Shown here in pieces: positions 10,620-61,592 of a DNA stretch of 64,000 bases. This stretch comes from an uncultured virus (IMG/VR IMGVR_UViG_3300027022_000002) (lineage: Duplodnaviria; Heunggongvirae; Uroviricota; Caudoviricetes), in the IMG/VR virus record IMGVR_UViG_3300027022_000002; one strand, given 5' to 3'. The notes under the pieces are model-generated. The model had not been told where the DNA came from. It saw only the letters and a list, made by a program, of their open reading frames with translations, and ran no database searches. The stretch's first letter is position 1. Each line of letters begins with the position of its first letter. The translations under genes were made by a program, and so were the position numbers.

Positions 10620-11322
10620 GGGGAAACGACAGGGGCGTCTGCGCCAGCCGGCCCGCCGCCGTACGGCAGTGCCTCTCGACGACCTCGACGCCGACAGCCC
10701 GGATGCCGAGGTTGCGGGCCGAGACCAGCACCGACCCGGAGCCGGCGAACGGGTCCACGACCAGCTCCGGCCACACCGGCAGAGACCCGGCCACCATCGA
10801 GATCAGGTCTTCGAGCATGTCGACCGGTTTGGCGTGCGGGTGCTGGTATCGGGTGACCGGCCCCGACGCCCCGGCGAGGATGTGCGACCGGGTGCCGAAC
10901 ACGCTGCCCCGCCCGCCCGCGATACCAGTGGGCCACCGCCCGACCAGGTAGATCGCCTCAACGTCGCGGCGGACCCCGGCGGTCGCGCCGCGCGCCCCAG
11001 CGTCGGGCGGCTTGGCGTACACGCACACCTGCCGGGTGCCGGCCGGCGGCGGCAGCATCAGGTCACCGAACACCACGGCGGGACGGTCACCCCATGCGGC
11101 GAGGGCCCGGTCCCGGGTGTCGGTCGAGGAGTCGCCGGCGATCCCCACGGCCCCGTCCGACCTCGACCTCTTCTTCCGCAGGACACCTTGCCGCCAGTTG
11201 CGGCCGTACGGCGGGTCGGTGACCAGCAGCACCGCCGCGCCGGGCCGGGCCCACACGTCGACCAGGTCGAAGCAGTCGCCGTGGTGGACGACGGACTGCC
11301 CGTCGTCGTAGACGACCGTCAC
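10570..11322 (-). CDS. DNA amino-methyltransferase (N6A/N4C, beta class)
   Basis: HGDC, VTDPPYG (motif IV) preceding HPHAKP and VDPFAGSGS (motif I). Confidence 0.9.
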   Translation of the reverse strand: MTVVYDDGQSVVHHGDCFDLVDVWARPGAAVLLVTDPPYGRNWRQGVLRKKRSRSDGAVGIAGDSSTDTRDRALAAWGDRPAVVFGDLMLPPPAGTRQVCVYAKPPDAGARGATAGVRRDVEAIYLVGRWPTGIAGGRGSVFGTRSHILAGASGPVTRYQHPHAKPVDMLEDLISMVAGSLPVWPELVVDPFAGSGSVLVSARNLGIRAVGVEVVERHCRTAAGRLAQTPLSFPRERKASPVDQQLVAES

Positions 11323-13043
11323 CCGTCGCCGGCCGGCGGCCGGTTCCCGGATGCCGGCCGACTCCCGGCCGGCGGCTTGTTCCCGCCTCCGTCGTCGCCG
11401 GGACGCTGCCCGGCCGCGGTCTTCCCGCCGGGCTCGTCGACCTCGACAGGCATGTCCGCTTTCTTGTCCTCGCGGATGCGGTCGACCTCTTCGAGGATCT
11501 CCCACTCTTCCCAGTCCGGGTTGGTCCGCTTGACCCGCTGGTAGAGGCTGATCGCCTCCGCGACGTGCAGCATGCCGAGCACGCGGGCATCGGTTTCGGC
11601 GTCGTCGGCGACACCGTCGGGGAACTGCGCCGACACCCGCAGCCCGGGGTCGGTCAGCAGCTTCCCACCGAAGTGCCGGTCGTAGATCTCCAACCAGGTG
11701 ACGGCGAGCCTGGACAGCGCCGGCCTCGCATAGTTGATCTTCCGCCGTCGGGTGGCGAACGACCGCTTTTCCCGCCGGATCACCTCGGTGGCGGTCGCCT
11801 CCACCCCGTCGCCGCCCTCACCGAACGACTGCACGCTGTAGCCGGCGGCCCGCACCGTCGCAGCGGTCAACGCCTCACAGGTGGCCTGGTGCTCGGCGAC
11901 CCGGATCGTGAACTGGACGTTGTGGATGTCCATGCCGCCGTCGGCGCGGGGCAGCGCCTCCAGCTGCTCGTACACCTCCTGCTCGGGGTCGAAGATCGCC
12001 CCCTTGCCCCGGCCCCGGTTCCGCAGGTACGCGGCGGGCACGATCAGCCGCGCCTTGCCGTGCCGCAGGTCCCGCATCCACGACGTCCACGCCTCGTCGA
12101 GCGCGTCCAACCCCTGGTCAACGCCGCCGTCGTAGTCGGAGCCGCCGAGCGGCGACCCCGGCAGGCTAAGGTTCGGCCGCATGTTCGGCAGGTACTCGAC
12201 GGCCAGCCGGCGGGCCCCGGTGACGATCGTCCCGAAAGCGTCGGTCGCCGGTGCGTGTACGGCCGTTTCCGGGTGCTTGGTCAGCTGCTGCCGCTCACCA
12301 AGGTTGCCGTCTTCCCCCCGGTACAGCCCGTGGATGATCACCCCGAACGGGTTGCCGCCGGTCAGGCTGCCCCGGGTCTCGTGCCGTTCCAGATGCCACC
12401 AGGTGCTGCCGGTCTTGTCTCCGGCGAGGGCGGGCAGCTTCCGCCAGAACGTCACCGCCGCCAGGTAGCCGGACCGCCACTCCGGCACCGCCCGGTCGGG
12501 CAGGATCGGCGTCACGATCGGATGGTCGGCGACGACCTTGTCCCACGTGATCCGCAGGTACACGCCGCCGTACGCCGCCGCGACCTCGGCCGCTTCCAGC
12601 AGCTGCGCGTGCAACCCGGCTTCTTGCATCGCCCACTTCAGCCGCCGCTGCGCCGGGTGCGGCTGCTTCAGCACATCCGACCTGGTGGGGTCCTTACGTC
12701 GCGGCGTCTCGTCGTGGTCGGATGCGACGACCAGTTCCGGCGCTTCGCCCATCAGCAGGTTCGCCGACGTGGCCGCGATGTCGTGCGCCAGCGGAATGTG
12801 CAGCCGGGCCTGCCTGAGCGCGTTGGGCTGCTCCGGGTTGCCCCAGAAGAACCGGGCCCGGAACCGGGACAGCAGACCCCGCTCCGGTACCGGCTTCGGG
12901 TCCACGGTGGCGATCGCGTTGTTGTAGACGATCGCCAGCTCCGAGGTGTCGCCCCGGTACCAGGCCGACCAGCGCCGGTAGCACTCCCGTGGATCCTCGG
13001 TCGACGTGGGCGGCCAGTCGGACCGGTCGGGTGGCAGCGGCAC
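11319..13043 (-). CDS. Portal protein (SPP1/A118-like)
   Basis: 574 aa near TerL. LHIPLAHDIA..SA.LL, LG.SDY, LDEAWTSWMRDLR.GK and TATEV motifs. Confidence 0.85.
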   Translation of the reverse strand: MPLPPDRSDWPPTSTEDPRECYRRWSAWYRGDTSELAIVYNNAIATVDPKPVPERGLLSRFRARFFWGNPEQPNALRQARLHIPLAHDIAATSANLLMGEAPELVVASDHDETPRRKDPTRSDVLKQPHPAQRRLKWAMQEAGLHAQLLEAAEVAAAYGGVYLRITWDKVVADHPIVTPILPDRAVPEWRSGYLAAVTFWRKLPALAGDKTGSTWWHLERHETRGSLTGGNPFGVIIHGLYRGEDGNLGERQQLTKHPETAVHAPATDAFGTIVTGARRLAVEYLPNMRPNLSLPGSPLGGSDYDGGVDQGLDALDEAWTSWMRDLRHGKARLIVPAAYLRNRGRGKGAIFDPEQEVYEQLEALPRADGGMDIHNVQFTIRVAEHQATCEALTAATVRAAGYSVQSFGEGGDGVEATATEVIRREKRSFATRRRKINYARPALSRLAVTWLEIYDRHFGGKLLTDPGLRVSAQFPDGVADDAETDARVLGMLHVAEAISLYQRVKRTNPDWEEWEILEEVDRIREDKKADMPVEVDEPGGKTAAGQRPGDDGGGNKPPAGSRPASGNRPPAGDG

Positions 13044-28246: not shown

Positions 28247-29305
28247 CTACTGTCTCACCTGCCCATCGTTGCCCCTGGTAGGAGCGTTTCCGTCGGCCGG
28301 TCGGGCATCCGACGATTCGCCGTCGTCGTCGTGGGCGAACACCCCGGCGACCCGGTACACCGCCGACCGGTCGAGGTTGTGCCGGTCGCGGTCGTACCGG
28401 CGGGTGGTGCGCGGGTCCGCGTGCCCGAGGACGTCTTGCACATCGGACAGCGGCGCGCCGGCCGACAGAGCGAGGGTGGCCAGGCTGTGCCGCAGGGAGT
28501 GGTTCGAGATCCGCTCCCACGAGTCGAGCCCCGCCCGTTTCGCCGTACGGCGGACGACGCGGAACGCTTCCGGCTGGTCCATCCGCCGGCGGCTGGTGGT
28601 GGCGAACAGCGGCCCCGGCCAGTCGCCCCGCTCCGTGAGCCAGGCGTCGAGGTCGCGTCCGAGCGGTGGCGGCACCGGCAGCTCCCGCATCTTCCCGCCC
28701 TTGCCCCGGATGCGGACGGTGCGGTGGCCCCGGTTGTGGCCGAGGCTGTCCACGTCCAGCCGCAGCGCCTCACCGACCCGCAACCCGAGTTCGATCATCA
28801 TCCCGAGTAGTGCCGCGTTGCGGCGGGCAGCGCCGCCTGTGGCCCGCCGGGCGGCCCGCATGAACTCTGCCGCCTCGGCCTTGGCTAACCCCACCGTGGG
28901 GGAGTAGTCCCGGTCGACGGGCGGCCGGTCAACCGCCTCCACCGGATTCCTCGCCGCCACGTCGTTGCTGACCAGGTAGGCGTACCAGCTGCTGATGGCG
29001 GACAGCCTGCGGTTCGTCGACGACCGGGCCAGGCCGGCGCAGCGGGCCACCACGAACGCGTCCACGTCGGCGCGCTTCGCCGCACGCGGATCCACCCCGG
29101 TCTCGTCACACCAGGTCAGCCACACGCCCAGGTCCCGCCAGTACGCCTTGCGGGTCGCGTCGGACCGGCGCGACGCCAGCCAGGCCGCGGTGGCGCTGCG
29201 CAGGTTCCACCGGCCCGCGTCCGGCTCGGCGGGCAGCGGCAACGCCCCGACCGCCTGCGAGATCAGGGAGAGAGGGCCCTGGTCGCGTGGGGCGATCTCG
29301 CTCAC
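28247..29305 (-). CDS. Tyrosine recombinase (XerC/D-like)
   Basis: Complete catalytic set: GLRVGE (R), GKGGK (K), HSLRH, LGHAD, TRRY; N-terminal SAM-like domain. Confidence 0.95.
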   Translation of the reverse strand: MSEIAPRDQGPLSLISQAVGALPLPAEPDAGRWNLRSATAAWLASRRSDATRKAYWRDLGVWLTWCDETGVDPRAAKRADVDAFVVARCAGLARSSTNRRLSAISSWYAYLVSNDVAARNPVEAVDRPPVDRDYSPTVGLAKAEAAEFMRAARRATGGAARRNAALLGMMIELGLRVGEALRLDVDSLGHNRGHRTVRIRGKGGKMRELPVPPPLGRDLDAWLTERGDWPGPLFATTSRRRMDQPEAFRVVRRTAKRAGLDSWERISNHSLRHSLATLALSAGAPLSDVQDVLGHADPRTTRRYDRDRHNLDRSAVYRVAGVFAHDDDGESSDARPADGNAPTRGNDGQVRQ

Positions 29306-29574
29306 GGGGTCCACTCCTGCCGGTAGTCGGGGTGCCGGCGGTGGGCTGCCGCGAGGAGCCGCAGCGTCGGGCACGGTGCCGGGTTCTGGTCGTGCAGGCA
29401 GTAGCGTTCCCGCCGGTTCGCTCGGGGGAACCCGGTCCACCGCCGGCCGGACTGGTCGTGCAGCCGCAGCATCTCCCGCTCGGCCGCGACCTTGTCTAGC
29501 TCGCTGGCCGGGTCGTGGAGGATGATGTGGCCCGCCGCCGCCGGGTCCATCTCGGTGATCTCGTAGCCGCCCAT
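29302..29574 (-). CDS. DUF6221-like protein
   Basis: HI..HDPA..L..VAA.R...CPTLRLLA...HPDYRQEW.P. Confidence 0.65.
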   Translation of the reverse strand: MGGYEITEMDPAAAGHIILHDPASELDKVAAEREMLRLHDQSGRRWTGFPRANRRERYCLHDQNPAPCPTLRLLAAAHRRHPDYRQEWTP

Positions 29575-29780
29575 CAGTACCGTTCGACCTTCTTGCCGCG
29601 CTCGCGGGCCGCGACGTGCTCGGCGTTCATCCAGTCCAGTTCTTCGCGGGTGATCTTCCCGTCGACGTGTGCCCAGAACGGGCCTTGGATGTCGGGGTCG
29701 GCGGTGTGCCGGCTGTTCAGCAGCCAGTCGATCGCGTCGTTCCACCGCTTCTCGGATTCCGGATCCGGGTTGTCGCTCAC
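29574..29780 (-). CDS. Hypothetical protein
   Basis: Translationally coupled small ORF. Confidence 0.55.
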   Translation of the reverse strand: MSDNPDPESEKRWNDAIDWLLNSRHTADPDIQGPFWAHVDGKITREELDWMNAEHVAARERGKKVERY

Positions 29781-30409
29781 AGCTGGTTCCTTCCGGTCGT
29801 TACGGGCGTGATGCCCGCGAGGTCTGCGATCTGGTCACCGGCCAGCCGGCCGGCTTCGACCAGGGCGACGGCGACCCGGTCGATCGCGTCCGCGTACCGG
29901 TCGGCGATCTCGGCGGCCCGTAGCCGGGCCGCGACGATCTCGTCAAAGGTGCTACACGCGGCGATCAGTTTCAGGGCATCGTGCCTGCTTCCGCTCGCGA
30001 GGTCGATCAGGTCGGCCTCTTCGGGCTCGCCGGGCAGCAGCAGCCGACGTTCGGCTGCGAACCCGGCCCACAGCCCAGCGGGGACAAGCTGGTCGGGAGG
30101 AAGCGCGATAGAGGTCGTCCCGCCCTGGCCGCCGTTCTTGCCTTCTAGAACGGTGATGTAGTTGACGCCTACGCCGAGGTGTAGATAGGTCACCGCGTGC
30201 CCCGCCTCGTGCACAGCCAAGGCCCGTTTCCAGCCCCCAGCATGGGGCAGCAGGTCCACGGCGGCACCGGCGGGCAGGGCCCTGTACGCGCGCCTGCAGT
30301 CGGGGCACATGCCCCACAGCGCCGGCCACATCAGGGTTTCGGCGATCTCCTTGCGGTGCCCGGCGCAGACGAAGTCCCGGACCCGGGCACCCTCAGCGAA
30401 GACGTACAC
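29777..30409 (-). CDS. Zincin metallopeptidase-like (M41-like) protein
   Basis: AVHEAGHAV, AG..AE.RLL, VAVALVEAGRL.G. Confidence 0.75.
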   Translation of the reverse strand: MYVFAEGARVRDFVCAGHRKEIAETLMWPALWGMCPDCRRAYRALPAGAAVDLLPHAGGWKRALAVHEAGHAVTYLHLGVGVNYITVLEGKNGGQGGTTSIALPPDQLVPAGLWAGFAAERRLLLPGEPEEADLIDLASGSRHDALKLIAACSTFDEIVAARLRAAEIADRYADAIDRVAVALVEAGRLAGDQIADLAGITPVTTGRNQL

Positions 30410-30411
30410 GG

Positions 30412-30825
30412 TCAGCTCTCCTGGCTGTCGTTCAGGTACAGCTGGTCGGCGGCTTGGAACGCCGCGCCGAGCGCGGCGACCAGCCGGGCGGTGGACTCGC
30501 AGCCCAGCTCGTCGGCGGCCCGCTCGGCGAGGACGCGCGGGTCTCCACCGATCGCGCTGGTCGCCAGGTTCGGGTGGTCGCGGAAGGCGGTCATTCGGGA
30601 GCCGAGTTGGTCGAGCAGCTGGGGGAGCCGGACCAGCGCGGTCCGGAGCGAGTCGATCACGGAGGCTGCGGTGCTCGGGTCCGGGATCGCGGCGGCGGGG
30701 CCGTCGAGCGTGGCGCGGTTGAGGTACCGGACCAGTTCGGCGATCTCGGCGGCGGCGGCCATGGTGTGTTCCCAGTCGCGTTTCCCGTACGGGTGCAGCT
30801 GGTTGACGGCGTCTTCGGCGGTCAC
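30412..30825 (-). CDS. Hypothetical protein
   Basis: AELVRYLNRATL..., coupled to neighbours. Confidence 0.6.
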   Translation of the reverse strand: MTAEDAVNQLHPYGKRDWEHTMAAAAEIAELVRYLNRATLDGPAAAIPDPSTAASVIDSLRTALVRLPQLLDQLGSRMTAFRDHPNLATSAIGGDPRVLAERAADELGCESTARLVAALGAAFQAADQLYLNDSQES

Positions 30826-31169
30826 GGGTGGGTCCCTTCGAGTAGTTCGGTCAGGGCTGCGGTGGTGTCGGCGTCCAGTCCGGCGGGCGCGGGAGCCGGG
30901 TCGATGGCGGTGACCGAGATGGTCCAACCGCGCCACCTCGGCCAGGCGTAGGCGCGCGGGGCCTTGGTGACGGGGTCCACGTCCTGCGACTGCAGCAGGT
31001 CGGGACTGTCGAGCTTCGCGGTGGTCAGCCACGACATGAGGTCGCCGACCGTGTTGAACCGGATGTGCATCTGGCGGGCACCGGTGTGGTCGCTCATGAT
31101 CTCGCTCGGGTTTCCGGCGAGGATGATGAAGGCCATCACCTGCCGGCGGGTGGCGGGCTGCTCGGGCAT
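30822..31169 (-). CDS. Hypothetical protein
   Basis: AAGGAG RBS. Confidence 0.6.
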   Translation of the reverse strand: MPEQPATRRQVMAFIILAGNPSEIMSDHTGARQMHIRFNTVGDLMSWLTTAKLDSPDLLQSQDVDPVTKAPRAYAWPRWRGWTISVTAIDPAPAPAGLDADTTAALTELLEGTHP

Positions 31170-31172
31170 GGT

Positions 31173-31499
31173 TCAGTTCTCCTTCGCGGGTTGGGGGAGT
31201 GTGATTTCGCCCTTGGCGACCAGGTCGCGCACGATCCCGTGGCCGAGGGACACAAGCCGCCACCGGGTCGCCCCGGGGATGTCGCGCAGGGCGTCGTTGC
31301 CGACCCGCTGCAGCGGGCTGGCCTTCGCGCGGTACCGCCAGAACCGCCCGCCGGTCGTGAAGATCATGGTTCGGGTGAGCCGTTCGACCTTGACGGCCTC
31401 GCCCATGTAGCTGCCGCCGCCGAGGTGGGCGACCATGACGGCCGTCTTCCCCACGGCGTACCACTGCTCATGGCCGTCCAGTTCCGGGCGATTGGTCAT
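31173..31499 (-). CDS. Hypothetical beta-barrel-like protein
   Basis: MTNRPELDG...VKVERLTRTMI. Confidence 0.55.
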   Translation of the reverse strand: MTNRPELDGHEQWYAVGKTAVMVAHLGGGSYMGEAVKVERLTRTMIFTTGGRFWRYRAKASPLQRVGNDALRDIPGATRWRLVSLGHGIVRDLVAKGEITLPQPAKEN

Positions 31500-31501
31500 G
31501 G

Positions 31502-31693
31502 TCAGTCGCTCTCGTGCCAGTCGTACTTGATGTCGGTCAGCGCGTCGACGGCTTCCGTGAACCGCTGCCGGCGGGTCATGGCGTCCCACGCCGAACGCGG
31601 GTACTCGACCCGGGCGGTGGTTCCGGCGTCGCCGAGGCGAGCCGTGAAGGTGATGGTCACGATGTCCTCCCGGTCGGGACTCTCTCCACTCAT
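31502..31693 (-). CDS. Hypothetical protein (leaderless)
   Basis: ATG 7 nt after the minus-strand -10 TATCAT. Confidence 0.5.
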   Translation of the reverse strand: MSGESPDREDIVTITFTARLGDAGTTARVEYPRSAWDAMTRRQRFTEAVDALTDIKYDWHESD

Positions 31694-31727
31694 GCCACAC
31701 ATGATAACAGTAATTATCATGTGTGGC
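31694..31727. promoter_or_regulatory. Perfect 14-bp inverted repeat operator over the promoter
   Basis: GCCACACATGATAA-cagtaa-TTATCATGTGTGGC. Confidence 0.75.
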
Positions 31728-31918
31728 TAGTGGCACGCCGGGGCCACCCGAAATCAGCCCGACGACCACCCCGACGCCAGGTCGACGCACCCGACGTACC
31801 GGGGCCAGCCTTGCACCCGCAAGCCCTGCGATCGATACGGGTCGACTGAGCCGGGACACATCGGCTAGGATGCTTCCTAGGATGGACCCGTCTGGAAGGG
31901 GCCGCAGGGAGCGTCGCC

Positions 31919-32191
31919 ATGGCCGTACAGATCGCACCCGATCTCGTGACCGGGCACACCACTCGCCTGCGGACGGTGTACGTCCAGGCGTGTCAGGCCG
32001 CCCTGGCCGACCGCACCCGGGCCGGCGCGTGCTCGTGCTCCCCCGACGCCGTCGTGGTGCTCACCGATGTGAGCCACGACCACCGGGGCCGGCGGGTCCA
32101 CGTCTCGGCCGAGTGCCAGGCGTGCCGCGGCGAGGCGGCGGCGTACGGTCGGCCCGACCGGCGGCCCGTACAGCCGCGGCTCATCGCGTAA
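31919..32191 (+). CDS. Small Cys-containing protein
   Basis: AGGGAG RBS, CSC...CQAC. Confidence 0.45.
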   Translation: MAVQIAPDLVTGHTTRLRTVYVQACQAALADRTRAGACSCSPDAVVVLTDVSHDHRGRRVHVSAECQACRGEAAAYGRPDRRPVQPRLIA

Positions 32192-32445
32192 CCGTTCGGT
32201 AGCTGCCGGTAGCCTCGCCGTGACCGCAGTGGGCTGCCGTGGCAGAGGCGTTCCAGCAGGTGGCTTCACTTCTCGCCCGAGGCGAACCAGACCCGGCGGC
32301 GACCTGCCGGGTTGAGCAAGCACCGCCCCGCAACCTCGGTTGCGGGGCGGTGCCGGTCTGTTTCATTGACCTGCCCGGGTGTGTGACGGCAGGCTTCTCG
32401 CGGGCTGACCGTACCCGGCTGGGGTGCGGGGTGTCGACCCCGCGT

Positions 32446-33270
32446 TCAGAGCGAGGCGAGGAGTTCCCGTACCTGCCGGTCGGCGTCGGGGTGGCCGCTC
32501 CCCCACGCGACGGTGACCGTGTCCTGCCCGGGAAGGCGGCGGGCGTGGTCGCGGTCGGCGAGGAGTGTTTCCAACGCGGACGCGGCCAGGTCTCCGCAGG
32601 GCACACACACCGGCAGGTGTGCGTCGGGGCGGGTCCGCTCGTGGAGGGTGAGCACCGCGAGCTGCGCGTGGTGCTCGGCTCCGGGAAGCAGACGCGGGGG
32701 GATCGAGTTGGGCAGGGTCTTCGCGAGCCGGGCGACGGTGCCGCAGGCGACGCATACGCCGTCGGCCGCGCCTTTCGCGTGGGCGACGATGTCGACCCAG
32801 CGTGCCGCCACCTCTTGTAGTTCGTGGAGCCATACGCCGTTGACGCGGATGCCGATGGTGTCCTTCGGGCCGAGGCCGGCGGGGGCGTCGATCTCGTTGC
32901 CGACGCCGTCGGCAACGAGGAAGGCTGCGGTGATGGCCGGGTGGGTGTCGGGCCCGCGCAGGAGGGACCGCATCTGCGCCCAGAACGCTTCAGCCCGGGT
33001 GCGGGCCTTGGCGGGGGTGATCGTCCCTCCGGGGGTGCCGATCACATAGGAGGCGTTGTCGACGCACAGGATCGGGGCGGTGCCGGCGGTGCGGTGGATC
33101 TGGGGTGCCCACATGCGCTGCCCGGGGCGGGTGATGGTGGCGGCGTGTCGGCCGGCGGGGTCCGCGTTGAGGTCGAGGACCCAGTCGATCCGGCGGTCCC
33201 GGTAGCAGGGCGGCGGCACCTGGTCGCGGTGCTCGTGGGCGTACCGGACGAGGTTGCGAAACAGGTTCAA
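32446..33270 (-). CDS. cas8c: Truncated, orphan type I-C Cas8c/Csd1-like protein
   Basis: Colinear motifs of the actinobacterial Cas8c N-terminal half: L..LV.YA, PP.Y....I.W.L.L, P.I.RT.G.AP.L.VD...YV.G, C..CG....L.KT.P..IP.RL.PGA, P(V/I)C..CG..A..AL..LL....H..RL.GQDT...W. The ORF ends at 274 aa. Confidence 0.75.
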   Translation of the reverse strand: MNLFRNLVRYAHEHRDQVPPPCYRDRRIDWVLDLNADPAGRHAATITRPGQRMWAPQIHRTAGTAPILCVDNASYVIGTPGGTITPAKARTRAEAFWAQMRSLLRGPDTHPAITAAFLVADGVGNEIDAPAGLGPKDTIGIRVNGVWLHELQEVAARWVDIVAHAKGAADGVCVACGTVARLAKTLPNSIPPRLLPGAEHHAQLAVLTLHERTRPDAHLPVCVPCGDLAASALETLLADRDHARRLPGQDTVTVAWGSGHPDADRQVRELLASL

Positions 33271-33529
33271 CGGGGTTGCCTTTCAGTTGGGGCGGGGCAG
33301 GAAGGCGGGCCGGGCGGCGGCCGGGTCCAGCGGTAGGCGTTCGACCGGCCGGTTGAGCCAGGTCCGGGACGGATCCCCACGCGATCCCGCCGTGGTTGTC
33401 GACCAGCGCGGGAGCGGTGTGTACGCGAGTCGGTGACCCTTGTCCTCTTCGCCGTGGTGCGCGGCGTGGGCGCGCGGTGCGGCTCGGATTCCGGCCGGCG
33501 TGGTCGGCCGGTTGCCAGCGTACAGACAC

Positions 33530-33591
33530 TCTGGATTGTCGTCAATCCAGACGTTGCACCGCTTGTGATGTTGGATTATCGGACGTAGCCT
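33530..33591. promoter_or_regulatory. Divergent promoter/operator region
   Basis: TCTGGATTG-tcgt-CAATCCAGA palindrome; TAGCCT -10 lies 6 nt before GTG 33598. Confidence 0.55.
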
Positions 33592-33597
33592 GATGGG

Positions 33598-34617
33598 GTG
33601 ACAGATTCGACAGAACCAGCCGCCGACGGGACGCAGGGCGTCGACGCGGCGCGACAGGTGGTGGAGGCCCACCGGCAGCGAACCCTGCGAGATCTGGCCG
33701 CCTACGCGGCCATCCGACGATCTGACCTGGTCGCCGCCGCGTGGCGGGCAGGCAACCGCGACGTGCCCCAGCTCGCCGAGGCGGCCCGCGTCAACCGGTC
33801 GACGATCTACGTCGACCTCGCCGCACACGACATCGACCCGCGAGAGGAACGAAAGATGCCCGAAGCCGTTGAGATCCCGCCGCCCGGGTGGCGGCACCCC
33901 AACCTGACCCGGGTCGTCCGCGTCCCGGCCCCGCTCGGCCAGGTCCGGTACGAGTACACGTTCGCCCGGCCGTTCACCCGCCGCGACCCCGACCCCGCCA
34001 CTGTCGAATCCCAGAGCGACCGCGGCGGCGTGCGGACGATGGACGACGTCTACCAGGCAGACCGGGAGCGCCGCGAGGTGCGGCACCGGTGGGCGCTGGA
34101 CGTTCTCCCCGCGCTGGTTCGGTCGCTGCTCGACGGCGGGTCCGTGCCGGAGATAGGCGTGCACGCGGTGTGGTCCGACGACCAGAAGCCCGCCTCCCGG
34201 TGGGTCGCCTACGCGGCTACCCGGGACGCCCTGACTGCCGCCTACCGAGAGTTGGACGCCACGCCCGACACCATGTGGCGGGCGGCGCTGCTGCGGGTCC
34301 ACGATGCCAAGCAGCCCGCTGTCGACGCGGCCCACGCCTGGGATCAGGCCGGCGTGAAGTTCGCCAAGCTCGCCGGGTGGCTGCGGGGCAAGCTCGACTC
34401 CGAGCGGTACCCGGTCGAGTGGAAAGAGGTCGAGAAGGCCGCCGAGGCGTGCGGCGTCGACATCAGCGGCTGGGCGATCGGCGACGTCGACGACTACGAG
34501 CGGTCCGGCTGGGACGGTCGGCCGGCTTCACCGGCCGTCCGCGAGATCAGCGAAATCATCAGCAAGGGTGACGCCCGGATCCGGGCGGTCGCCGAACTGG
34601 CCGGGGAGGCGCGATGA
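33598..34617 (+). CDS. HTH-containing hypothetical protein
   Basis: RSDLVAAAWRAG..DVPQLAEAARVNRSTIYVDL. Confidence 0.7.
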   Translation: MTDSTEPAADGTQGVDAARQVVEAHRQRTLRDLAAYAAIRRSDLVAAAWRAGNRDVPQLAEAARVNRSTIYVDLAAHDIDPREERKMPEAVEIPPPGWRHPNLTRVVRVPAPLGQVRYEYTFARPFTRRDPDPATVESQSDRGGVRTMDDVYQADRERREVRHRWALDVLPALVRSLLDGGSVPEIGVHAVWSDDQKPASRWVAYAATRDALTAAYRELDATPDTMWRAALLRVHDAKQPAVDAAHAWDQAGVKFAKLAGWLRGKLDSERYPVEWKEVEKAAEACGVDISGWAIGDVDDYERSGWDGRPASPAVREISEIISKGDARIRAVAELAGEAR

Positions 34618-41388: not shown

Positions 41389-42108
41389 TCAGACGTTGGT
41401 CAGGTGCTCGTTGCGCCGGGGGTCGTCGAACCGGCGCAGCTCATCAGCGGCGGTCGCCTCGTACGCTTCGGCGGTGCTGACTGCGTGCCCACACGCCGTG
41501 CGCATCGTGGCGGCCTGCGACCACCACAGCTCGACCAGCCCGTCGCCCGCCCCGGGGAACTGGGCGATTCCCCGCTTGACGACCTCGTTGCAGGCCCGGG
41601 AGACGTGCCAGAACGTTGGGTTGAGGCCGCGTAGGAACGCGCGGAGGTCCGGCGGGTTCTGCGGCCGGTACCGCCACACGTTCAGCTGTGCTTCGGCGAA
41701 CGCCCGGCGGGCCGGGCCGAGGTCGATGCCACGCGGCCCGTGCGCCGGGACGTTGTTCCACTGCTCGTTGTAGCGGGGCTGGGTCGCCCGCTGCACGTCG
41801 TTGGGGTTGGCCGCCGTGTACGCGTTGTGCGCGGCGATGAAGAACTGGTACATCCCTTGGTAGGCGGCGGCCAGGTTGACGCCGTAGTCGGCGACCTGCG
41901 GGTCCACCGGGTAGTCGGACGGTAGCTGCGACGTCCACCGGTGAACCTCGGTGGCCAGCTCTGCCCACAGGAGGGCAAGCCCGGACAGGTGTTCCAGCAT
42001 GGTGTTGACCCGGTCGGGCATCTGCCCGTAGACCTGGTCGGTCGCGCCGAGCAGCGGTTCCTGGGTCGGGTGGGGCTGCCAGCCGGGTACCGGCTTGTAC
42101 TGCGCCAT
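41389..42108 (-). CDS. TraA-like plasmid transfer accessory protein
   Basis: Two helical repeats ending D..R...PR.NE...NV; directly upstream of traB. Confidence 0.5.
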   Translation of the reverse strand: MAQYKPVPGWQPHPTQEPLLGATDQVYGQMPDRVNTMLEHLSGLALLWAELATEVHRWTSQLPSDYPVDPQVADYGVNLAAAYQGMYQFFIAAHNAYTAANPNDVQRATQPRYNEQWNNVPAHGPRGIDLGPARRAFAEAQLNVWRYRPQNPPDLRAFLRGLNPTFWHVSRACNEVVKRGIAQFPGAGDGLVELWWSQAATMRTACGHAVSTAEAYEATAADELRRFDDPRRNEHLTNV

Positions 42109-42147: not shown

Positions 42148-44781
42148 TCAGATGTTTGCTAGGTGCTCGTTCCGGCGCGGGTCGTCGAACCGGGCCAGTT
42201 CGGCGACCGCCGACGCTTCGTAGGCGTCTGCGACGGCGATGGCCGCTGACGCGCAGGACCGCAGGGTGCGGGCTAGGTGGGCGGGGAATCCGCCGGGCAG
42301 GCCGGACGCGGTCGACGCCGCCGCGACCTGCCGGTAGGTGCCGTCCAGGCCGCGTAGGAACGCCCGCAGGTCGGCCGGGTTGGCTGGCTGGTAGCGGCCG
42401 AACAGGTCGGCGTGTTCGCCGGCGAACGCGTTGCGGGCCTGCGTCAGCAGGGCCCGCTCGCCGTACCGGTCGGCGTCGTCGACGGCCGGTCGGGCCGCCG
42501 CCTGGCGGGCGGTATCGGCGAGCTGCCGGTAGGCGACCGCGACGGCGCGCAGCAGGTCGGTGACCTGCGGCGCGATCGGGTAGTCGCCGGTCAGCCGCCG
42601 CCCGAACCCGGCGACGTCGCTCGCCGCGGCGTCCCACATCGCGGCGAGTCCGACCAGGTGGTCGGCTTCGTCGGTGCCGCTGCGGATGGCGGGGATGCCG
42701 ACCAGTTGCCGACCCCAGCGGATCAGCTGCTCCTGCGCGGGGTGTGGCGGGTACTCCCGCCGGCCGGGCAGCGCCGTCGGCGCAGCCGTCGGCACCTCGA
42801 TCGTTTCGACGGCGGGCGGTTCGGGCAGCCGGACCGCCCGGCGGGCGGGTGCCGGTGTGGCGGGGATCGCCGGGATCGGCGGGGCCGGCAGGGCGGGCAT
42901 CGTCGGCCGGGCCGCGCAGGCGACCCGGACGGGTCGGCGGCGCGGCGGCTGCGGATAGGTCGCCTCTGCCCGGATGGGCCCGCTGTACGGGTGGCTGCGG
43001 TGGCGTGCCGCCGCGCGGTCGGCGCGGCGCTGTGCCCGTTCGGCGTCGCGGCGTGCGGCGGCGTCGAGCCTGGTGATGGTGGCGCGGAGCGCCCAGGCGG
43101 CGGCCTGCGCTGTCGCCTGGTCGTAGCGGTGCGCGGTGTAGCCGGCGGCGAACGACACCCGGTCGCGGGCAGGCCGGGTCTTCGTGGCCGTCCACGCCGT
43201 GGCGGTCGCGGCGTTGGCCTTGACCCGCTGGCCGGCGGCCGTGCCCTTCGCTCGGGTCCAGTCGGCGGCGGGCCGCGCCTTGGCCTTGGTCCAGTCGGCG
43301 GCGGTGTCCGCTTTGCCCTGCGCCCACGAGCCTGCGACCCGGGTCTGCACCCAAGCCGCGTTGCGGGCCTTCTCGGCGTGGCGGGCAGCCCGGTACCGGA
43401 CCGACGCGGTCTGCCAGCGGGCGGCCCGCCAGCCCATGCCGGCGTACCGGGAGGCCCGCAGCGAGGCGCGTTGCGTGGCGCGGCCGGTTTTACGGCCGGC
43501 GACCGACACGCCTTTGACGATCTTCCCGTCCGTCCAGGCCATGGTCCGGCCGGTCCAGTCCATTGCGACGGCGAACGCGCCGCCGTTGCGGCGGGCCCGC
43601 TGCTTCGCGGCGAGGACGGCCTTGGCCAGCTTGCGGCGGCGGGTGGGGCTGATCCCGTCCGCCTTCATCAGCGCTTCGGTCATCCGAGTGCGGCTGGCCG
43701 GGGACATCTTGCCCGCCCAGCTGCGGGCACCCAGCGCGGTGCGCGGCAGCGAGCCGTAGTTCTTCTTGTTCAGGGTGGGGAACTTGCCCTTGCCGCCGGT
43801 CTTGTCCTTCTTCGTCTTGCTGCCGGGGGTGGCTTTGCCCGCCACTGCGGCGCGGCCCGCTTTGCCTCCCGGGGCGGTGCCGCCCTTGTTCTTGCCGCCC
43901 GGGGTGAGGCCCTTGCCGGTCTTGTTCTTGCTGCCCGGGGCGGTGCCGCCCTTGGCGGTCTTGTTCTTGCCGCCGCCGAGGCCGAGGGTCTTCCCGGCTG
44001 CGGCGAGGCCCTTCCCCGGGCGGCCCTTGCCGCCCGGGGTGAGTCCCTTGCCCGCCTTGCCCTTCCCGCCGGGGGTGAGTCCTTTCCCTGCGGCGGGGCG
44101 GCGGCCGGCGAGCGCCTTGCCGAGCGGCGACCCGGCCGCGGCCTTCTTCCGACCGGGGCCGGTCGACGTACCCGCGCCGGGGCGGGCCTTGCGGCCGGTG
44201 AGCCCGCCGGCCGGGCTACCGCTCTTGGCGCGGCGGCGGCCACCGGACGGGCCGGCGGACGCCTTGGTGTTACGGCGCGGCCCGCCGGAGCCGCCGCGTC
44301 CCCGTCGGCCGCCGGTGAGGCCGGCGAACGCGCGCGCTTCGCGGCGGCGGGCGGGTCCGCCGTTGCGGCGGTCGGCGGCGGACGCCTTCGCGGCTCCGGC
44401 TGCGACGGCGATGCCGGCGGCGGTGGCCAGCAGCACCGCGCCGCCGAACACGTTGAAGATCACCAGCCCGGCTGCGCCGGTGACGACGACCAGGCCGGTC
44501 GCGATGGTGCCGACCGCGCTGCCGGGCGTCTCGTCCTCGTCGTCCTCGCCGCTGTCGGGCTTGGCGTCGGGGGCGGGTTCGGCGGCGGTGGCGGTGGTCG
44601 TCTCGGCCGGTTCCGGGTCGTCGAGGGCGATGTCCGGTGCCGTCGGGGTGGTCGGTTCGGTTTCCGGTTCGGGTGTCGGGTCGGCCGCGTGGGCGGCCGG
44701 GGCGACGGAGACGTAGTTGTCTCCGTCTTCGTGGCTGACGTGCACGGCGTCGCCGTACTCGCCCCCATCCATGGTGGCCAT
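42148..44781 (-). CDS. Large membrane-anchored low-complexity transfer protein with TraA-like C-terminus
   Basis: Two TM segments, Gly/Lys-rich repeats (GKGLTPGGK), C-terminus paralogous to 41389-42108. Confidence 0.6.
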   Translation of the reverse strand: MATMDGGEYGDAVHVSHEDGDNYVSVAPAAHAADPTPEPETEPTTPTAPDIALDDPEPAETTTATAAEPAPDAKPDSGEDDEDETPGSAVGTIATGLVVVTGAAGLVIFNVFGGAVLLATAAGIAVAAGAAKASAADRRNGGPARRREARAFAGLTGGRRGRGGSGGPRRNTKASAGPSGGRRRAKSGSPAGGLTGRKARPGAGTSTGPGRKKAAAGSPLGKALAGRRPAAGKGLTPGGKGKAGKGLTPGGKGRPGKGLAAAGKTLGLGGGKNKTAKGGTAPGSKNKTGKGLTPGGKNKGGTAPGGKAGRAAVAGKATPGSKTKKDKTGGKGKFPTLNKKNYGSLPRTALGARSWAGKMSPASRTRMTEALMKADGISPTRRRKLAKAVLAAKQRARRNGGAFAVAMDWTGRTMAWTDGKIVKGVSVAGRKTGRATQRASLRASRYAGMGWRAARWQTASVRYRAARHAEKARNAAWVQTRVAGSWAQGKADTAADWTKAKARPAADWTRAKGTAAGQRVKANAATATAWTATKTRPARDRVSFAAGYTAHRYDQATAQAAAWALRATITRLDAAARRDAERAQRRADRAAARHRSHPYSGPIRAEATYPQPPRRRPVRVACAARPTMPALPAPPIPAIPATPAPARRAVRLPEPPAVETIEVPTAAPTALPGRREYPPHPAQEQLIRWGRQLVGIPAIRSGTDEADHLVGLAAMWDAAASDVAGFGRRLTGDYPIAPQVTDLLRAVAVAYRQLADTARQAAARPAVDDADRYGERALLTQARNAFAGEHADLFGRYQPANPADLRAFLRGLDGTYRQVAAASTASGLPGGFPAHLARTLRSCASAAIAVADAYEASAVAELARFDDPRRNEHLANI

Positions 44782-46237: not shown

Positions 46238-46254
46238 TTCAGTGCCTCCGGGTG

Positions 46255-46560
46255 TGGGTCAGCGCGGTCAGGGTGACCGCTTCGCGGGGCTGACCGGGCC
46301 GTGGCGCGGTCAGGGTCGGGCTGTGGGTGACCGGGGTGACCGGGGGGCGGTCGGTGCCGGTCGGGTCGGTGGGGGTCGGGGTGACCGGGGTCAGGTCGGG
46401 TCGGTCAGGGTGACCGGGTTGGGGGGTGACCGGGGCGGGGTGACCGTGACCGGGGTCAGGGTGACCGGGTCGGTTGGGTCGCCGGGCGGTCAGGGTGACC
46501 GGTCGGCGGGTGGTCAGGGTGACCGGGGTCAAGGTCAGTTCCGGGGTCATGGTGACCATC
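46255..46560. repeat. Dense GGTGACC/GGTCAG short-repeat field (candidate clt)
   Basis: About a dozen GGTGACC(G) copies interspersed with GGTC(A/G)GG within ~300 bp. Confidence 0.75.
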
Positions 46561-46629: not shown

Positions 46630-46872
46630 GTGAGCGAGCAGTGGTTGAGCGTCGCCGAGGCGGCGATGGAGACCGGCCTCTCGGAGGCCACCGTCAGACG
46701 GTGGGTTGACGCCTTCCTGGCTGGCGGCCAGCCGGGTTCCCCCGGGGTCCTCGTCGGCCGGCTGCTGCTGCTGCGGCGCGGGCGGGGCAGGGTGCGCCAG
46801 GTCGACGCGGGCGACGCCCGGCGGGTCGCCCGGGAGCTGGGAACCGGACCGCGCCCCGTCACGGAGGGTTAG
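46630..46872 (+). CDS. Excisionase-like/MerR HTH protein
   Basis: WLSVAEAAMETGLSEATVRRWVD. Confidence 0.65.
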   Translation: MSEQWLSVAEAAMETGLSEATVRRWVDAFLAGGQPGSPGVLVGRLLLLRRGRGRVRQVDAGDARRVARELGTGPRPVTEG

Positions 46873-47072: not shown

Positions 47073-48190
47073 TACCCCCGCGTGCGCGCCGCACCCGGCA
47101 CCGTCAGTGACGACCGGTCCGGCACCGTCACGTCGACCCGGACGACCGTCGGCACCCCGACGGCCCGTCGGATCCACCGCTGCAGTGCCATCGCGGCGAC
47201 GGCCGCGGCCTCGCGCAGGTTGCCGGGGACCGGCAGCCCGAACGACTCCCCCGGCAGCTGCGGGTCGAGCATCCAGCCGAGCGGCGCGGCGTCGCCGGCC
47301 GACTGGAGCACGTACAGCGGCGGGCCGGTCGGGGTGGCCCGCAGTTCGATGCCGCCGGCCCACCTGGTCGACGGGTGGGCGGTCAGGGTGACCGTCGCGG
47401 CGGGGGTCGGGTCGGTCAGCCTGGTGCCCGGTCCGGCCCCGTCGTCGTAGGCGACGTCGGCCCAGGTCGGGTCAGGCTGCTGGTCAGGTTCCAGGGTGAC
47501 CGCGTCCCGGTCACCCGGGCTGACCGGGCCGGTCAGGTCACCCCGCCAGATCAGGTCAGCGGTCAGCTGGTCGACGTCGGCGGCGAACGCCGCCGCGTCG
47601 GTCAGGTCAGCCTGACCCTGACCAGCCACCGGGGTGACCGGAGCCCCGTCACGGTCACCCCGGTCAGGCTGACCGGGCGGGGTGACCGGGGTGACCGGCA
47701 GCGGCCTACCGCCGTACGCGGTCACCACCGTGTCGGGCCGGTCAACCGCCCGGACGACGATTCTGACCGGCCATTCCGCCCCGTCCGTCCAGTGATTCGC
47801 GGCCCTTTCCGCGAAAGCGCCGATCGCGACAATGTCGCGCTTGCAGGATGAACGAAACCTGAAATGGGTCGACCAGTCGCCGGGCCGGTCGAGGTCGTAG
47901 GCGTCGATTTCGACGTCCACGACGACTATCCCCCGCACCTGGCCGAGGTAGAGGTAGCGGCTGATCGCCATGTCCTCGGCCTCGGCCGGGTTGTCTGCGA
48001 CGAATTGGGCGGTGGGGGTTTGCGCCATCCACCGGCCGCCCTCGTCGGGGCACACCAGCGCGATGGTGTGCCCGTCGGCCGTCGAAACAGCCCAGTGGTA
48101 TCCGTCGACTCCCCGATTTCTGTGGAAGTCGAGCCCTTTCGCGGTCGCGCCAGTGCCGGCGCGGGTCGCCACGTCCACCATGTCGTTCAC
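47072..48190 (-). CDS. Hypothetical protein whose central part is encoded by GGTGACC/GGTCA repeats
   Basis: Long co-oriented ORF with VTP/LT repeats at 47380-47730. Confidence 0.55.
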   Translation of the reverse strand: MNDMVDVATRAGTGATAKGLDFHRNRGVDGYHWAVSTADGHTIALVCPDEGGRWMAQTPTAQFVADNPAEAEDMAISRYLYLGQVRGIVVVDVEIDAYDLDRPGDWSTHFRFRSSCKRDIVAIGAFAERAANHWTDGAEWPVRIVVRAVDRPDTVVTAYGGRPLPVTPVTPPGQPDRGDRDGAPVTPVAGQGQADLTDAAAFAADVDQLTADLIWRGDLTGPVSPGDRDAVTLEPDQQPDPTWADVAYDDGAGPGTRLTDPTPAATVTLTAHPSTRWAGGIELRATPTGPPLYVLQSAGDAAPLGWMLDPQLPGESFGLPVPGNLREAAAVAAMALQRWIRRAVGVPTVVRVDVTVPDRSSLTVPGAARTRG

Positions 48191-48563: not shown

Positions 48564-48654
48564 ACGGTACGTCACGCCCTGCATTGGGTCAACGCAATGC
48601 CGCAGAAAATCATGATGGAGCCCTGTTGACTCAGTCATGACGGGGGGTTAATGT
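48564..48654. promoter_or_regulatory. Back-to-back divergent promoters
   Basis: Minus: TTGCG-TTGACC-N17-TACCGT. Plus: TTGACT-N17-TAATGT. Confidence 0.75.
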
Positions 48655-49724: not shown

Positions 49725-50237
49725 CTACAGCACGTCGGCGTGCTGCTGCTCCCATTCGGCGACCAAGTCGCGGCCGTCGGGCCGGACCACGGCGGTCAGG
49801 GTGACCCCGACGCCGGGGCCGACAATGTCGGTTGCGATCTTCTCGGCCTGGGCGAGGGTGTCGACCGTGCCCGGCTCGTAGAACTCGCTGCACGCCAGCC
49901 CGTCGCCCGCTTCCCACTGGAAGCAGATGTGGGTGCGAGCCTCCGGCCAGGTGCGGCCCTCGTTGTGCTCCTCCTTGCGGCGCACCGCTGTGGTGAGGTC
50001 GATGTCGTAGCGGTTGGCGATGGCCGCCGTGAACAGCAGCACGTCGGCCAGCTCCTCGTCCACCGATCCGACGATGTCGCCTTCGGTGCCGGCGACCCTG
50101 CCGCCGGAGACGATCGCTTCGAGCACCTCCATCGCCTCTTTCACCAGTCGCCGGGCTTGGTCGGCAGCCGGCTTGTGGGCGAAGCCGCGCCGCTGCTCCA
50201 TCGCCCGGACGTACTCCTGCAGGTCCGTCAGGTTCAC
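49725..50237 (-). CDS. MazG-like nucleotide pyrophosphohydrolase with C-terminal extension
   Basis: KEAMEVLEA...EELADV..F...IANRY.IDL..A...KEE.N..R.W. Confidence 0.85.
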   Translation of the reverse strand: MNLTDLQEYVRAMEQRRGFAHKPAADQARRLVKEAMEVLEAIVSGGRVAGTEGDIVGSVDEELADVLLFTAAIANRYDIDLTTAVRRKEEHNEGRTWPEARTHICFQWEAGDGLACSEFYEPGTVDTLAQAEKIATDIVGPGVGVTLTAVVRPDGRDLVAEWEQQHADVL

Positions 50238-51027: not shown

Positions 51028-51130
51028 ACGGTACTGCATGGGCTGTCATGAGTCAACGCAAAGCTTGCCGAGGCGTGCCGGGAAAACATTACGGACCCAC
51101 GTTGACTCAGTCATGACGGGGGGGTAATGT
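51028..51130. promoter_or_regulatory. Second copy of the back-to-back divergent promoters
   Basis: Minus: TTGCG-TTGACT-N17-TACCGT. Plus: GTTGACTCAGTCATGACGGGGGGGTAATGT, nearly identical to 48625-48654. Confidence 0.75.
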
Positions 51131-58826: not shown

Positions 58827-59258
58827 CCGCCATCCGGCGTGCCGGTAGAACACCCCCACCGGATCCAGCAGCACCAGCCGACCAGACGACAACTCCACCG
58901 GCACCCCCGCCGCGTCCACCGCCTGCTCCACCAGCAGCCCACGACGGCGGGCCTCCGCACGCTCCGACTCCACCCAGCCGTGACAGCCCCGCGTGCCGTC
59001 CCCACACACGACCAACAGGTGGTGCAGCTCGTGCACGTCCACCCGGGACGTGCCACCCATCCCCTGCGGCTTGCGGTGGTGCACCGACACCAGCAGCCCC
59101 GGCCTGCCCAGCCAGCCATCCGGGGCAGCCAGACACCGAGACGACCGCACCTCACACAGCTCGCCGGACCGGGTGAACAGCAGCAACCGCAGCTGCTCCC
59201 ACGCCACCGCACCGAGGTGATTGTCCGCCGGCCGCCGCTGAATCCCCGCCCGCTTCAC
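58818..59258 (-). CDS. HNH endonuclease-like protein
   Basis: CEV...C, HHRKPQGMGG, LL.VCG.GT.GCHGWVE. Confidence 0.8.
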   Translation of the reverse strand: MKRAGIQRRPADNHLGAVAWEQLRLLLFTRSGELCEVRSSRCLAAPDGWLGRPGLLVSVHHRKPQGMGGTSRVDVHELHHLLVVCGDGTRGCHGWVESERAEARRRGLLVEQAVDAAGVPVELSSGRLVLLDPVGVFYRHAGWRLH

Positions 59259-61119: not shown

Positions 61120-61592
61120 TGGTCCGGCTCCTGGTTCGACCGGGCGACGGCTGCCTGCGCGGCCTGCCTGCGGGTGTCGAACGCCCGCCCCGGCACGTCC
61201 GGGTGGGTGTAGAAGAAGCTGCCGACCTCGCGCCGCTGCTGCCGGCCGAGCCGCCGCGAAGCGGCCCGGTCAGCGCGCTGCTCGGCGGTGAACTTCTGGA
61301 AGTACCGCACGACCCGCCGCGCCTCGACGTTCACCACCGACGGGCCCGGCGGCGTGCGATTCAGCCGATCGGCGGCCTTCTGCGCGGCCTCGTAGCTGGC
61401 ATAGCGCACCAGCAGCCCCGACCTCGTGTCGTGGTGCTCCGTCTTGCCCGTCTCGGCGTTGGTTCGCCACAGGAACCACCGCCGCTTGCCGGCCCCGTTG
61501 CTGCCGGGGTACCAGCGGCCCGGCGTCGACCCCCAGTAGTCCCGGCGGGCCGGCTCGACGTCGACGATCGGCATCTGCCCCGACGCGTTCAC
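61116..61592 (-). CDS. Hypothetical protein
   Basis: GTGA-coupled ORF. Confidence 0.55.
   Translation of the reverse strand: MNASGQMPIVDVEPARRDYWGSTPGRWYPGSNGAGKRRWFLWRTNAETGKTEHHDTRSGLLVRYASYEAAQKAADRLNRTPPGPSVVNVEARRVVRYFQKFTAEQRADRAASRRLGRQQRREVGSFFYTHPDVPGRAFDTRRQAAQAAVARSNQEPDQ

Follow-up and report, generated by a model that had tools for sequence, protein, structure and literature searches.

This study concerns a 64,000-nucleotide stretch of DNA from an uncultured Caudoviricetes virus (IMG/VR record IMGVR_UViG_3300027022_000002), the whole of which we call the window, and within it a minus-strand gene at 32446..33270 whose product corresponds to the NTD (N-terminal domain) of Cas8c, the large subunit of the Cascade complex of type I-C CRISPR systems. 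The source is a temperate actinobacterial phage. The protein belongs to a small, old NTD-only family whose carriers are this phage and, in Micromonosporaceae genomes, regions that look accessory or mobile. The function that we tentatively favor, from sequence, structural modelling and analogy with known inhibitors, is that of a Cas-derived anti-CRISPR (Acr) directed at the Cascade of a host type I-C system. It would be the first anti-CRISPR made from the Cas8 domain that reads the protospacer-adjacent motif (PAM), and no protein inhibitor family directed at type I-C of actinobacteria would precede it, a claim whose chances we consider evenly balanced.

A Cas8c N-terminal domain standing alone

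The gene and the site in front of it are as follows:
32446..33270, minus strand: stand-alone Cas8c N-terminal-domain (NTD-only) gene, an uninterrupted open reading frame (ORF) of 274 amino acids (aa) with a TTG start, assigned from first-half matches to Pfam and PADLOC profiles, AlphaFold2 and Foldseek
33279..33284, minus strand: Shine-Dalgarno-like GAAAGG, read from the sequence, 8 nt before the TTG start of the Cas8c-NTD gene

The clean 274-aa ORF with its own ribosome-binding site, from which the initial annotation of this DNA had set out, is borne out by these two features, and the G+C content at the three codon positions of the ORF (0.75/0.53/0.90) is like that of other genes of the window, which has 71% G+C overall. 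The encoded protein, of ~30 kDa, is near-neutral, with a net charge of +2 and an isoelectric point (pI) of 8.3.

The annotation had recognized Cas8c from motifs and had called for a profile search. The search now yields Pfam and PADLOC matches, in both cases to the first half of the profiles only: Cas_Csd1 (PF09709) matches with E = 7.2e-15 and 55.1 bits (cut-off 27), residues 11-267 of the protein covering positions 5-278 of the 559 in the profile, and three Cas8c models of PADLOC match, the best with E = 1.9e-19 over profile positions 4-257 of 525; a search of the protein against NCBIfam profiles gave no match. The motifs said to run colinearly with the N-terminal half of Cas8c, two CxxC pairs and an H..RL.GQDT..W block, were both found. 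The cysteines of the pairs C173/C176 and C222/C225 align with invariant columns of actinobacterial Cas8c, and the block HARRLPGQDTVTVAW is, like both pairs, invariant in the alignment. AlphaFold2, given an alignment of 102 sequences, predicts the protein with a local distance difference score (pLDDT) of 92.4, a template-modelling score (pTM) of 0.89 and no disordered stretches. With this model as query, Foldseek returned five PDB matches at E<=0.001 (8dfs_I, 8gaf_G, 8dej_I, 8g9u_H and 8g9t_K; query TM-scores, TMq, of 0.52-0.64), all of them chains of solved type I-C Cascades of Desulfovibrio vulgaris or Neisseria lactamica, which supplies the structural match that the annotation had wished to see; we take the five chains as Cas8c from the sequence match to 8dej_I and from their lengths. 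That sequence match, of a profile of the short family described below, has E = 4e-8 over chain residues 21-274. Among the viral structures of BFVD there were no matches at E<=0.001.

The domain borders given in structural papers locate the end of the phage protein. As described by Hu et al. (bioRxiv 10.1101/2023.08.05.552134), the NTD of N. lactamica Cas8c (aa 1-259) is followed by a wedge (260-348, with the Cas3 recruit loop at 276-297), an adaptor domain (349-457) and a Cas11-like C-terminal domain (CTD, 458-582); the NTD bears the PAM-interaction loop, is touched by the helicase domain of Cas3 and takes the Cas3 anchor loop. D. vulgaris Cas8c has a disordered stretch at residues 290-348, and its CTD (489-612) also serves as Cas11c (O'Brien et al., bioRxiv 10.1101/2022.06.15.496202). 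From these borders we conclude that the phage protein is the Cas8c NTD, cut at a natural hinge. Compared with the full Cas8c architecture of NTD, wedge, adaptor and Cas11-like CTD in ~560-620 aa, the 274-aa protein has the NTD and nothing of what follows: the wedge with its recruit loop, the adaptor and the Cas11-like bundle at the C terminus are all missing. The C-terminal part, reported missing by the annotation, is also missing from the vicinity: seven C-terminal-half queries against the window and five related loci found no remnant (best E 0.41), and an N-terminal control matched at six of six. The annotation had further assigned contacts with both the PAM and Cas5c to the N-terminal part; PAM sensing agrees with the papers, and the holding of Cas5c is a putative role; the papers, in the parts consulted, depict a mobile PAM-sensing module that also touches Cas3.

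A family of short proteins and what it has changed

When 1.84 billion cluster representatives were searched exhaustively with HMMER, 259 hits were obtained, of which the best four after the protein itself are short (279, 337, 279 and 255 aa, at 40-44% identity) and are followed by full-length proteins of ~590-610 aa at 30-38%. Genome and metagenome scans placed two of these four, in Plantactinospora alkalitolerans (279 aa) and Phytomonospora sp. (255 aa), and added two members, from a Micromonosporaceae metagenome-assembled genome (MAG, 267 aa) and from a 6-kb metagenome contig (269 aa); the genome scan had found nothing with one protein as query, and an alignment-based scan then found three genomes. 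Altogether the short family has seven stand-alone members of 255-337 aa, 35-66% identical, with a common end at the domain border: they stop ~20 residues past the GQ..V.W block, one with an additional 60-aa low-complexity tail. In a tree of N-terminal parts, six short proteins form a single clade versus 57 full-length ones, with a Shimodaira-Hasegawa-like approximate likelihood ratio test (SH-aLRT) value of 100 and a stem length of 0.85 (N-terminal 330 residues; full-length rows being hits ranked 75 or better with at least 530 aa; quick IQ-TREE run without bootstraps). A clade of its own, apart from genuine Cas proteins, is a trait of Cas-homologue anti-CRISPRs, and the short family has it.

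Forty-eight columns are invariant among five short members aligned. For the closest short pair with DNA, the MAG and the metagenome contig (66% aa identity), the ratio of non-synonymous to synonymous substitution rates (dN/dS, Nei-Gojobori) is 0.29. The control, for which 21 genuine cas8c genes of the carriers' bacterial family were cut to their first 300 codons, has a median of 0.34 at 60-72% identity (range 0.10-0.62, 78 pairs) and of 0.60 at 30-45% identity, where short pairs have 0.43-0.79; all these values are rough because dS is near saturation in every pair. By this sequence measure, the short family behaves like a working Cas8c NTD. Conserved truncated homologues under purifying selection were what the annotation had expected, with random-length decaying fragments as the outcome that would speak against it; what we find is one clade of uniform length under purifying selection. 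In net charge and pI, no shift was seen between the short family and full-length NTDs.

The comparison with genuine Cas8c covers 37 columns that are at least 75% conserved in the N-parts of 96 full-length proteins; the short family keeps 26 of them, keeps 7 partly and has lost 4. The S-x-N of genuine Cas8c is lost in six of six short proteins, its S (90% of the 96) being replaced by V or T and its N (97%) by T, G or P. The LVSxN segment does read LAVLTL here, as first noted, and the alteration proves to be family-wide and derived. This segment corresponds to I217-N221 of D. vulgaris Cas8c (HMMER alignment to 8dej_I, counted by hand), and Q212, just before it, is the glutamine ‘wedge’ that splits DNA, according to the portion of the source available. 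The loop that carries S-x-N, P196-C222, has 25-27 residues in the six short proteins versus 28-44 in full-length ones, none of the 96 being as short, and lies 5-7 residues below the full-length median. The loop of the ‘vice’ residues (K55/K56/R58 in D. vulgaris) has 20-27 residues versus a median of 31, with 12 of the 96 full-length proteins as short, and the NTD as a whole has 233-261 residues versus 271-309. The short proteins have lost neither R-x-[SA]-G, the motif of the PAM loop, nor any of the four cysteines. The picture suggested by these alignments is of a trimmed NTD, its core and PAM loop preserved and one Cas8c-specific functional loop rebuilt.

Among 301 sampled genomes of Plantactinospora's bacterial family, 30 have a match, 3 of them to the short form and 28 to the full-length form, one genome having both. 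This genome, a Phytomonospora (G003), carries cas3-cas5c-cas8c-cas7c-cas4-cas1-cas2 with open frames and at least 72 spacers, and with an identity of only 26-28% between the short protein and the Cas8c of this genome, the former is not a recent copy of the latter. Plasmids gave 14 matching records, all from Streptomyces, at 27-32% identity as for full-length proteins and none from the short family; 13 of the 14 are annotated as Cas8c/Csd1 and the place is unannotated in the remaining one. The short gene is an orphan in three genomes as well. Small unnamed genes surround it in the two named genomes with long flanks, and in Phytomonospora a fragment of a TrwC relaxase, a gene of Schlafen type and one resembling a Pycsar effector are close by.

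Several observations on these loci may be recorded here. In the Phytomonospora locus (L005 9705-10004), the short gene overlaps by 4 nt the stop of an upstream 99-aa gene with weak helix-turn-helix (HTH) matches only (E 0.08-0.14), and on the metagenome contig (L044 868-1512) it abuts an upstream 214-aa ORF. Locus L003 and the same metagenome contig have small neighbour genes in common, with an ‘RV.VW.GA.AD’ motif, as judged by eye. In the ESM Atlas, several large Cas8c/Csd1 clusters have representatives of 306-341 aa, which may be contig-end fragments or short forms from other phyla. Two spacers of the G003 type I-C array (L011 12797-12910) match the chromosome of G003 itself, one over 34 of 36 nt inside a DUF3866 gene of a Pup-proteasome locus and the other over 40 of 41 nt inside an HTH-NB-ARC-TPR regulator gene (targets at L045 9998-10032 and L046 9983-10017, with flanks TAC and GAC, not TTC). 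These may be cases of tolerated self-targeting; as an Acr sign they were set aside as ambiguous, because TTC is missing from the flanks and there is nothing special about the genes targeted.

The phage genome around the gene

Calling by G+C content at third codon positions (GC3) gave 62 ORFs in the window. Their products include a P22-type coat protein, a minor capsid protein, an SPP1-type portal, small and large terminases, a tyrosine integrase and RecT/YqaJ, and also a collagen-repeat protein, DpdA, MazG and two DNA methylases; no tRNA genes were found in the window. For the large terminase, the best matches are to Streptomyces phages, at 51-56% identity; several of these phages have genomes of 81-83 kb (such as Hiyaa and Spocter) and others of 34-40 kb. 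A 45.7-kb IMG/VR contig (estimated 53% complete) has 70% of the window's sampled words and a copy of the Cas8c-NTD gene that is 99% identical, with 2 of 825 nt different, both non-synonymous, and the 90%-identity cluster of the protein was seen on 4 contigs, the longest of 85.9 kb. The phage collection searched gave zero DNA or protein matches to the gene or its 6-kb surroundings.

PADLOC assigned zero Cas models to the 61 window ORFs besides the Cas8c-NTD gene, and Tandem Repeats Finder (TRF) revealed no CRISPR-like array in the window, the only long tandem arrays being collagen-type coding repeats at 4065-4696; the statement that cas3, cas5, cas7 and an array are absent from the 64 kb withstands both searches. 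The cas3-cas5c-cas8c-cas7c operon and array in which genuine Cas8c is set do not accompany the gene, and a homologue of a Cas subunit encoded by a virus away from any cas operon or array is another trait of Cas-homologue anti-CRISPRs that we find here. An RNA anti-CRISPR, in the form of a solitary I-C-like repeat, was considered for the window and rejected, with one match with 2 mismatches versus 1.14 expected.

The neighbourhood of the gene is made up as follows:
28247..29440, minus strand: tyrosine integrase (Pfam Phage_integrase 2e-27; phrog_1 1e-39), marker of the lysogeny/accessory region that contains the Cas8c-NTD gene
29574..32191, no single strand: five small accessory ORFs (68, 210, 115, 72 and 90 aa) with zero family matches, separating the integrase gene from that of the Cas8c NTD
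32320..32353, no strand assigned: 15-bp G+C-rich hairpin, likely a shared terminator (terminator-like site, 1 found versus 0.7 expected)
33271..33597, no strand assigned: divergent intergenic region of 327 bp, with a palindrome, a half-site and a minus-strand promoter-like site at 33604->33575
33598..34617, plus strand: divergent 339-aa gene, family unassigned, without Pfam, PHROG or PADLOC match

The integrase gene lies ~3 kb from the Cas8c-NTD gene, and the five ORFs between them agree with the small accessory genes that the annotation had described around it. The hairpin, a strong one, stands between the convergent genes at 31919-32191 (plus strand, 90 aa) and 32446-33270 (minus strand). 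In the divergent region, the palindrome TGGATTG-TCGT-CAATCCA is at 33532-33549 and 33572-33581 holds a related half-site. These 327 bp were also considered as the place of a small coding gene, an idea rejected because the frames are unconvincing (best GC3 0.77). The annotation had seen an HTH gene diverging across a palindromic operator. The divergent gene and the palindrome stand. The 339-aa product has no Pfam family at E<=0.5, and its Atlas leads of 0.78-0.79 are below the threshold of 0.8, therefore the ‘HTH gene’ label is unverified.

Elsewhere in the window, 59255-63899 is likely a DNA-modification/anti-restriction cluster in which DpdA (7-deazaguanine insertion family, E 3e-43) is accompanied by a C5-cytosine methylase and by a protein like PAPS reductase or DndC; outside it, 10570-11505 encodes another methylase, of N6/N4 type, and 49725-50237 a MazG. 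A 48-nt element has 85% identical copies at 48607-48654 and 51083-51130, just upstream of plus-strand genes starting at 48694 and 51178, and with its TTGACT and TAATGT hexamers it resembles a repeated phage promoter. Clusters of GGTCAGGGTGACCGG-type short repeats at 46250-46530 and 47377-47700, beside a small HTH gene (46630-46872), could be iterons, binding sites or a repetitive coding stretch. Adjacent stretches at 41389-42108 and ~42148-42400, 74-75% identical as DNA, look like a tandem duplication of a 239-aa protein without family match. The 510-aa protein at 3542-5074 has collagen triple-helix repeats (E 2e-35), is presumably a tail fibre, and is the source of all long tandem repeats in the window.

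Candidate functions and what they would mean

The scenario that we tentatively prefer is the following. The NTD-only protein would be made in the lysogen or early in infection, and at the PAM-proximal end of Cascade the free NTD might then occupy, or make inaccessible, the site of the host's own Cas8c NTD, docking where the resident NTD must clamp the PAM duplex. Because its S-x-N loop is rebuilt, the free NTD perhaps could not open DNA, and because the recruit loop is absent, it perhaps could not recruit Cas3; the outcome would be a Cascade unable to open DNA or to license Cas3. A free NTD with a disabled S-x-N loop might act in one of two ways, by plugging the PAM-proximal site of Cascade or by trapping the anchor loop of Cas3. 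Of the preferred scenario we infer all three elements, type I-C as the target, binding to Cascade, and inhibition. The context is supportive, an orphan phage gene ~3 kb from an integrase, in a phage that also has DNA methylases, DpdA and MazG, and so is the intact I-C operon that G003 has in addition to its short gene. A complex prediction of the G003 short homologue with the Cas5c of G003, both entered as alignments, scored 0.12 with the mark at 0.32 and counts neither way.

A number of points weigh against such an inhibitor. Foremost, the Cas8c NTD is mobile and tethered, being unresolved in the apo D. vulgaris complex and vanishing on AcrIC8 binding, as far as the source texts available describe it, and it therefore may not be the anchor of Cas8c, in which case a free copy must outcompete a tethered one. 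Full-length Cas8c was not found with the Pfam model in two of the three carrier genomes, G002 (9.2 Mb) and the MAG G004. The 945 spacers of 21 type I-C loci from the same bacterial family match the window at best over 30 of 38 positions, compared with 30 of 39 on the reversed window, which is chance, and the loci that surround the short homologues were not matched either. No known acr or aca (anti-CRISPR-associated) gene was found beside the Cas8c-NTD gene, and with the HTH nature of the neighbour unconfirmed, the analogy to acr/aca arrangements that the annotation had drawn is weak. A protein that binds DNA for some purpose other than CRISPR could make equally good use of the kept PAM loop and zinc-type cysteines. 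Finally, AcrVIA2, a Cas3 homologue, inhibits type VI, an indication that viral Cas homologues can have unexpected targets (bioRxiv 10.1101/2023.06.24.545427 and a 2026 review, in their accessible parts).

A use unrelated to CRISPR blocking, either as a zinc-dependent DNA-binding or regulatory protein of lysogeny or as a superinfection-exclusion factor, is in our estimate unlikely without being far-fetched. It would be in keeping with the four cysteines and the minor-groove PAM-loop motif that are kept, with the place of the gene in a lysogeny/moron region beside a regulatory-looking intergenic palindrome, with the two carrier genomes lacking type I-C by the Pfam model, and with the translational coupling of the Phytomonospora copy to a small gene with weak HTH hints. 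It fits poorly with losses that cluster in a Cas8c-specific functional loop, and we know of no isolated Cas8 NTD that binds DNA usefully alone. A Cas-derived orphan on a mobile element also fits the published Acr pattern (bioRxiv 10.1101/2023.06.24.545427, available text), which again disfavors a function outside CRISPR. A non-functional remnant of a captured cas8c would explain a truncated homologue with a non-ATG start and the two non-synonymous differences, out of 825 nt, from the IMG/VR copy; it is close to refuted by the seven uniform-length members in one clade with dN/dS like that of functional NTDs, by their 48 invariant columns, by the confidently predicted fold and by the lack of C-terminal debris.

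Two further possibilities stay within CRISPR biology. A Cas3 decoy is rather improbable in our judgement: the free NTD would expose the anchor-loop groove and titrate Cas3 in the manner of AcrIF3. The groove normally receives the Cas3 anchor loop only after full R-loop formation, as the source excerpt has it; the helicase domain of Cas3 contacts the Cas8 NTD (bioRxiv 10.1101/2023.08.05.552134, accessible portion), the NTD is a mobile, self-contained fold, and AcrIF3 provides a precedent of Cas8-like mimicry blocking nuclease recruitment (bioRxiv 10.1101/2023.06.24.545427, accessible portion). A decoy of this kind would lack the recruit loop (wedge, 276-297), the other half of the ‘handshake’, and would leave the specific remodelling of the S-x-N loop without a reason. 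A helper or retuner of host CRISPR, such as an alternative PAM reader guarding the lysogen against competing phages, we regard as very improbable. The kept PAM loop is compatible with it, and so is the suggestion that in lysogens the initial effect of viral cas genes may be to stimulate immunity (bioRxiv 10.1101/2023.06.24.545427); it has against it that the protein is without every part for joining the Cascade belly or recruiting Cas3, that the near-invariant S-x-N is lost, and that the identity to the resident Cas8c in G003 is 26-28%.

An inhibitor directed at Cascade has precedents. In the accessible text of the preprint that describes them (bioRxiv 10.1101/2023.06.24.545427), AcrIB3 is homologous to Cas5 and AcrIB4 to the final 90 aa of Cas8b; each falls in a clade of its own, both are built into a Cascade that fails to engage DNA, and 358 orphan viral cas genes were counted in IMG/VR. 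A 2026 review, in the part available, lists only AcrIB3, AcrIB4 and AcrVIA2 as Cas-homologue Acrs and describes AcrIB3 as a Cas5 with its hook missing and a loop changed. As far as these texts go, the Listeria proteins AcrIB3 and AcrIB4 resemble the short family as orphan cas homologues on mobile elements, in their own clade and ~35-40% identical to the part copied, and AcrIB3 also in combining a local deletion with a changed loop relative to the genuine subunit. They differ in what they copy, which is Cas5 in one case and in the other the Cas11-like 90 aa at the C terminus of Cas8b, and are experimentally proven inhibitors of type I-B in Firmicutes; the phage protein, unlike them, copies the N-terminal PAM-reading domain of Cas8c, with type I-C of Actinomycetota as putative target. 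AcrIF3 has been described, in the text at hand, as a mimic of part of a Cas8 subunit that hinders nuclease recruitment; it is without detectable sequence homology to Cas8f, mimics a helical bundle and not the NTD, and acts on type I-F. AcrIC4, AcrIC8, AcrIC9 and AcrIF2 presumably share the target, the PAM-proximal end and Cas8c NTD of the I-C Cascade, going by the source passages available, and have no kinship with Cas proteins, being DNA mimics or small and acidic, in contrast to a near-neutral homologue of Cas8c. With Cas8c/Csd1 itself (PF09709; 8DEJ from D. vulgaris, 8G9U from N. lactamica) the protein shares NTD homology and fold and the PAM-loop motif, and with actinobacterial Cas8c the two CxxC pairs; it differs in having ~274 of ~600 residues, in the absence of the internal Cas11c, in standing outside a cas operon, and in a more compact NTD that has lost S-x-N. 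The AcrIB3/AcrIB4 study, by Katz et al., reportedly appeared later in Nature. In the full-text literature searched, no phage-borne Cas8c fragment or Cas8-NTD-derived Acr was found; Table S3 of Katz et al. may list this contig. Since that precedent is published, the principle of the captured Cas subunit is already known, and the novelty lies in the copying of the NTD, the module that reads the PAM, in I-C as the subtype and in the group of phages concerned.

If the protein is a type I-C inhibitor, the ‘viral cas gene’ route to anti-CRISPRs extends to a new domain, subtype and phylum, and any modular piece of Cascade, beyond Cas5 or the Cas11-like bundle, can perhaps be turned against the complex. 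It would also offer a natural separation-of-function piece of Cas8c with which the roles of the NTD in PAM reading, Cas3 docking and Cascade docking can be approached, and a possible off-switch for compact type I-C editors, and the lost S-x-N and the shortened loop point to residues of interest in genuine Cas8c. If it is not an inhibitor of CRISPR, it would be unexpected in its own right that phages conserve a Cas8 NTD for some different task.

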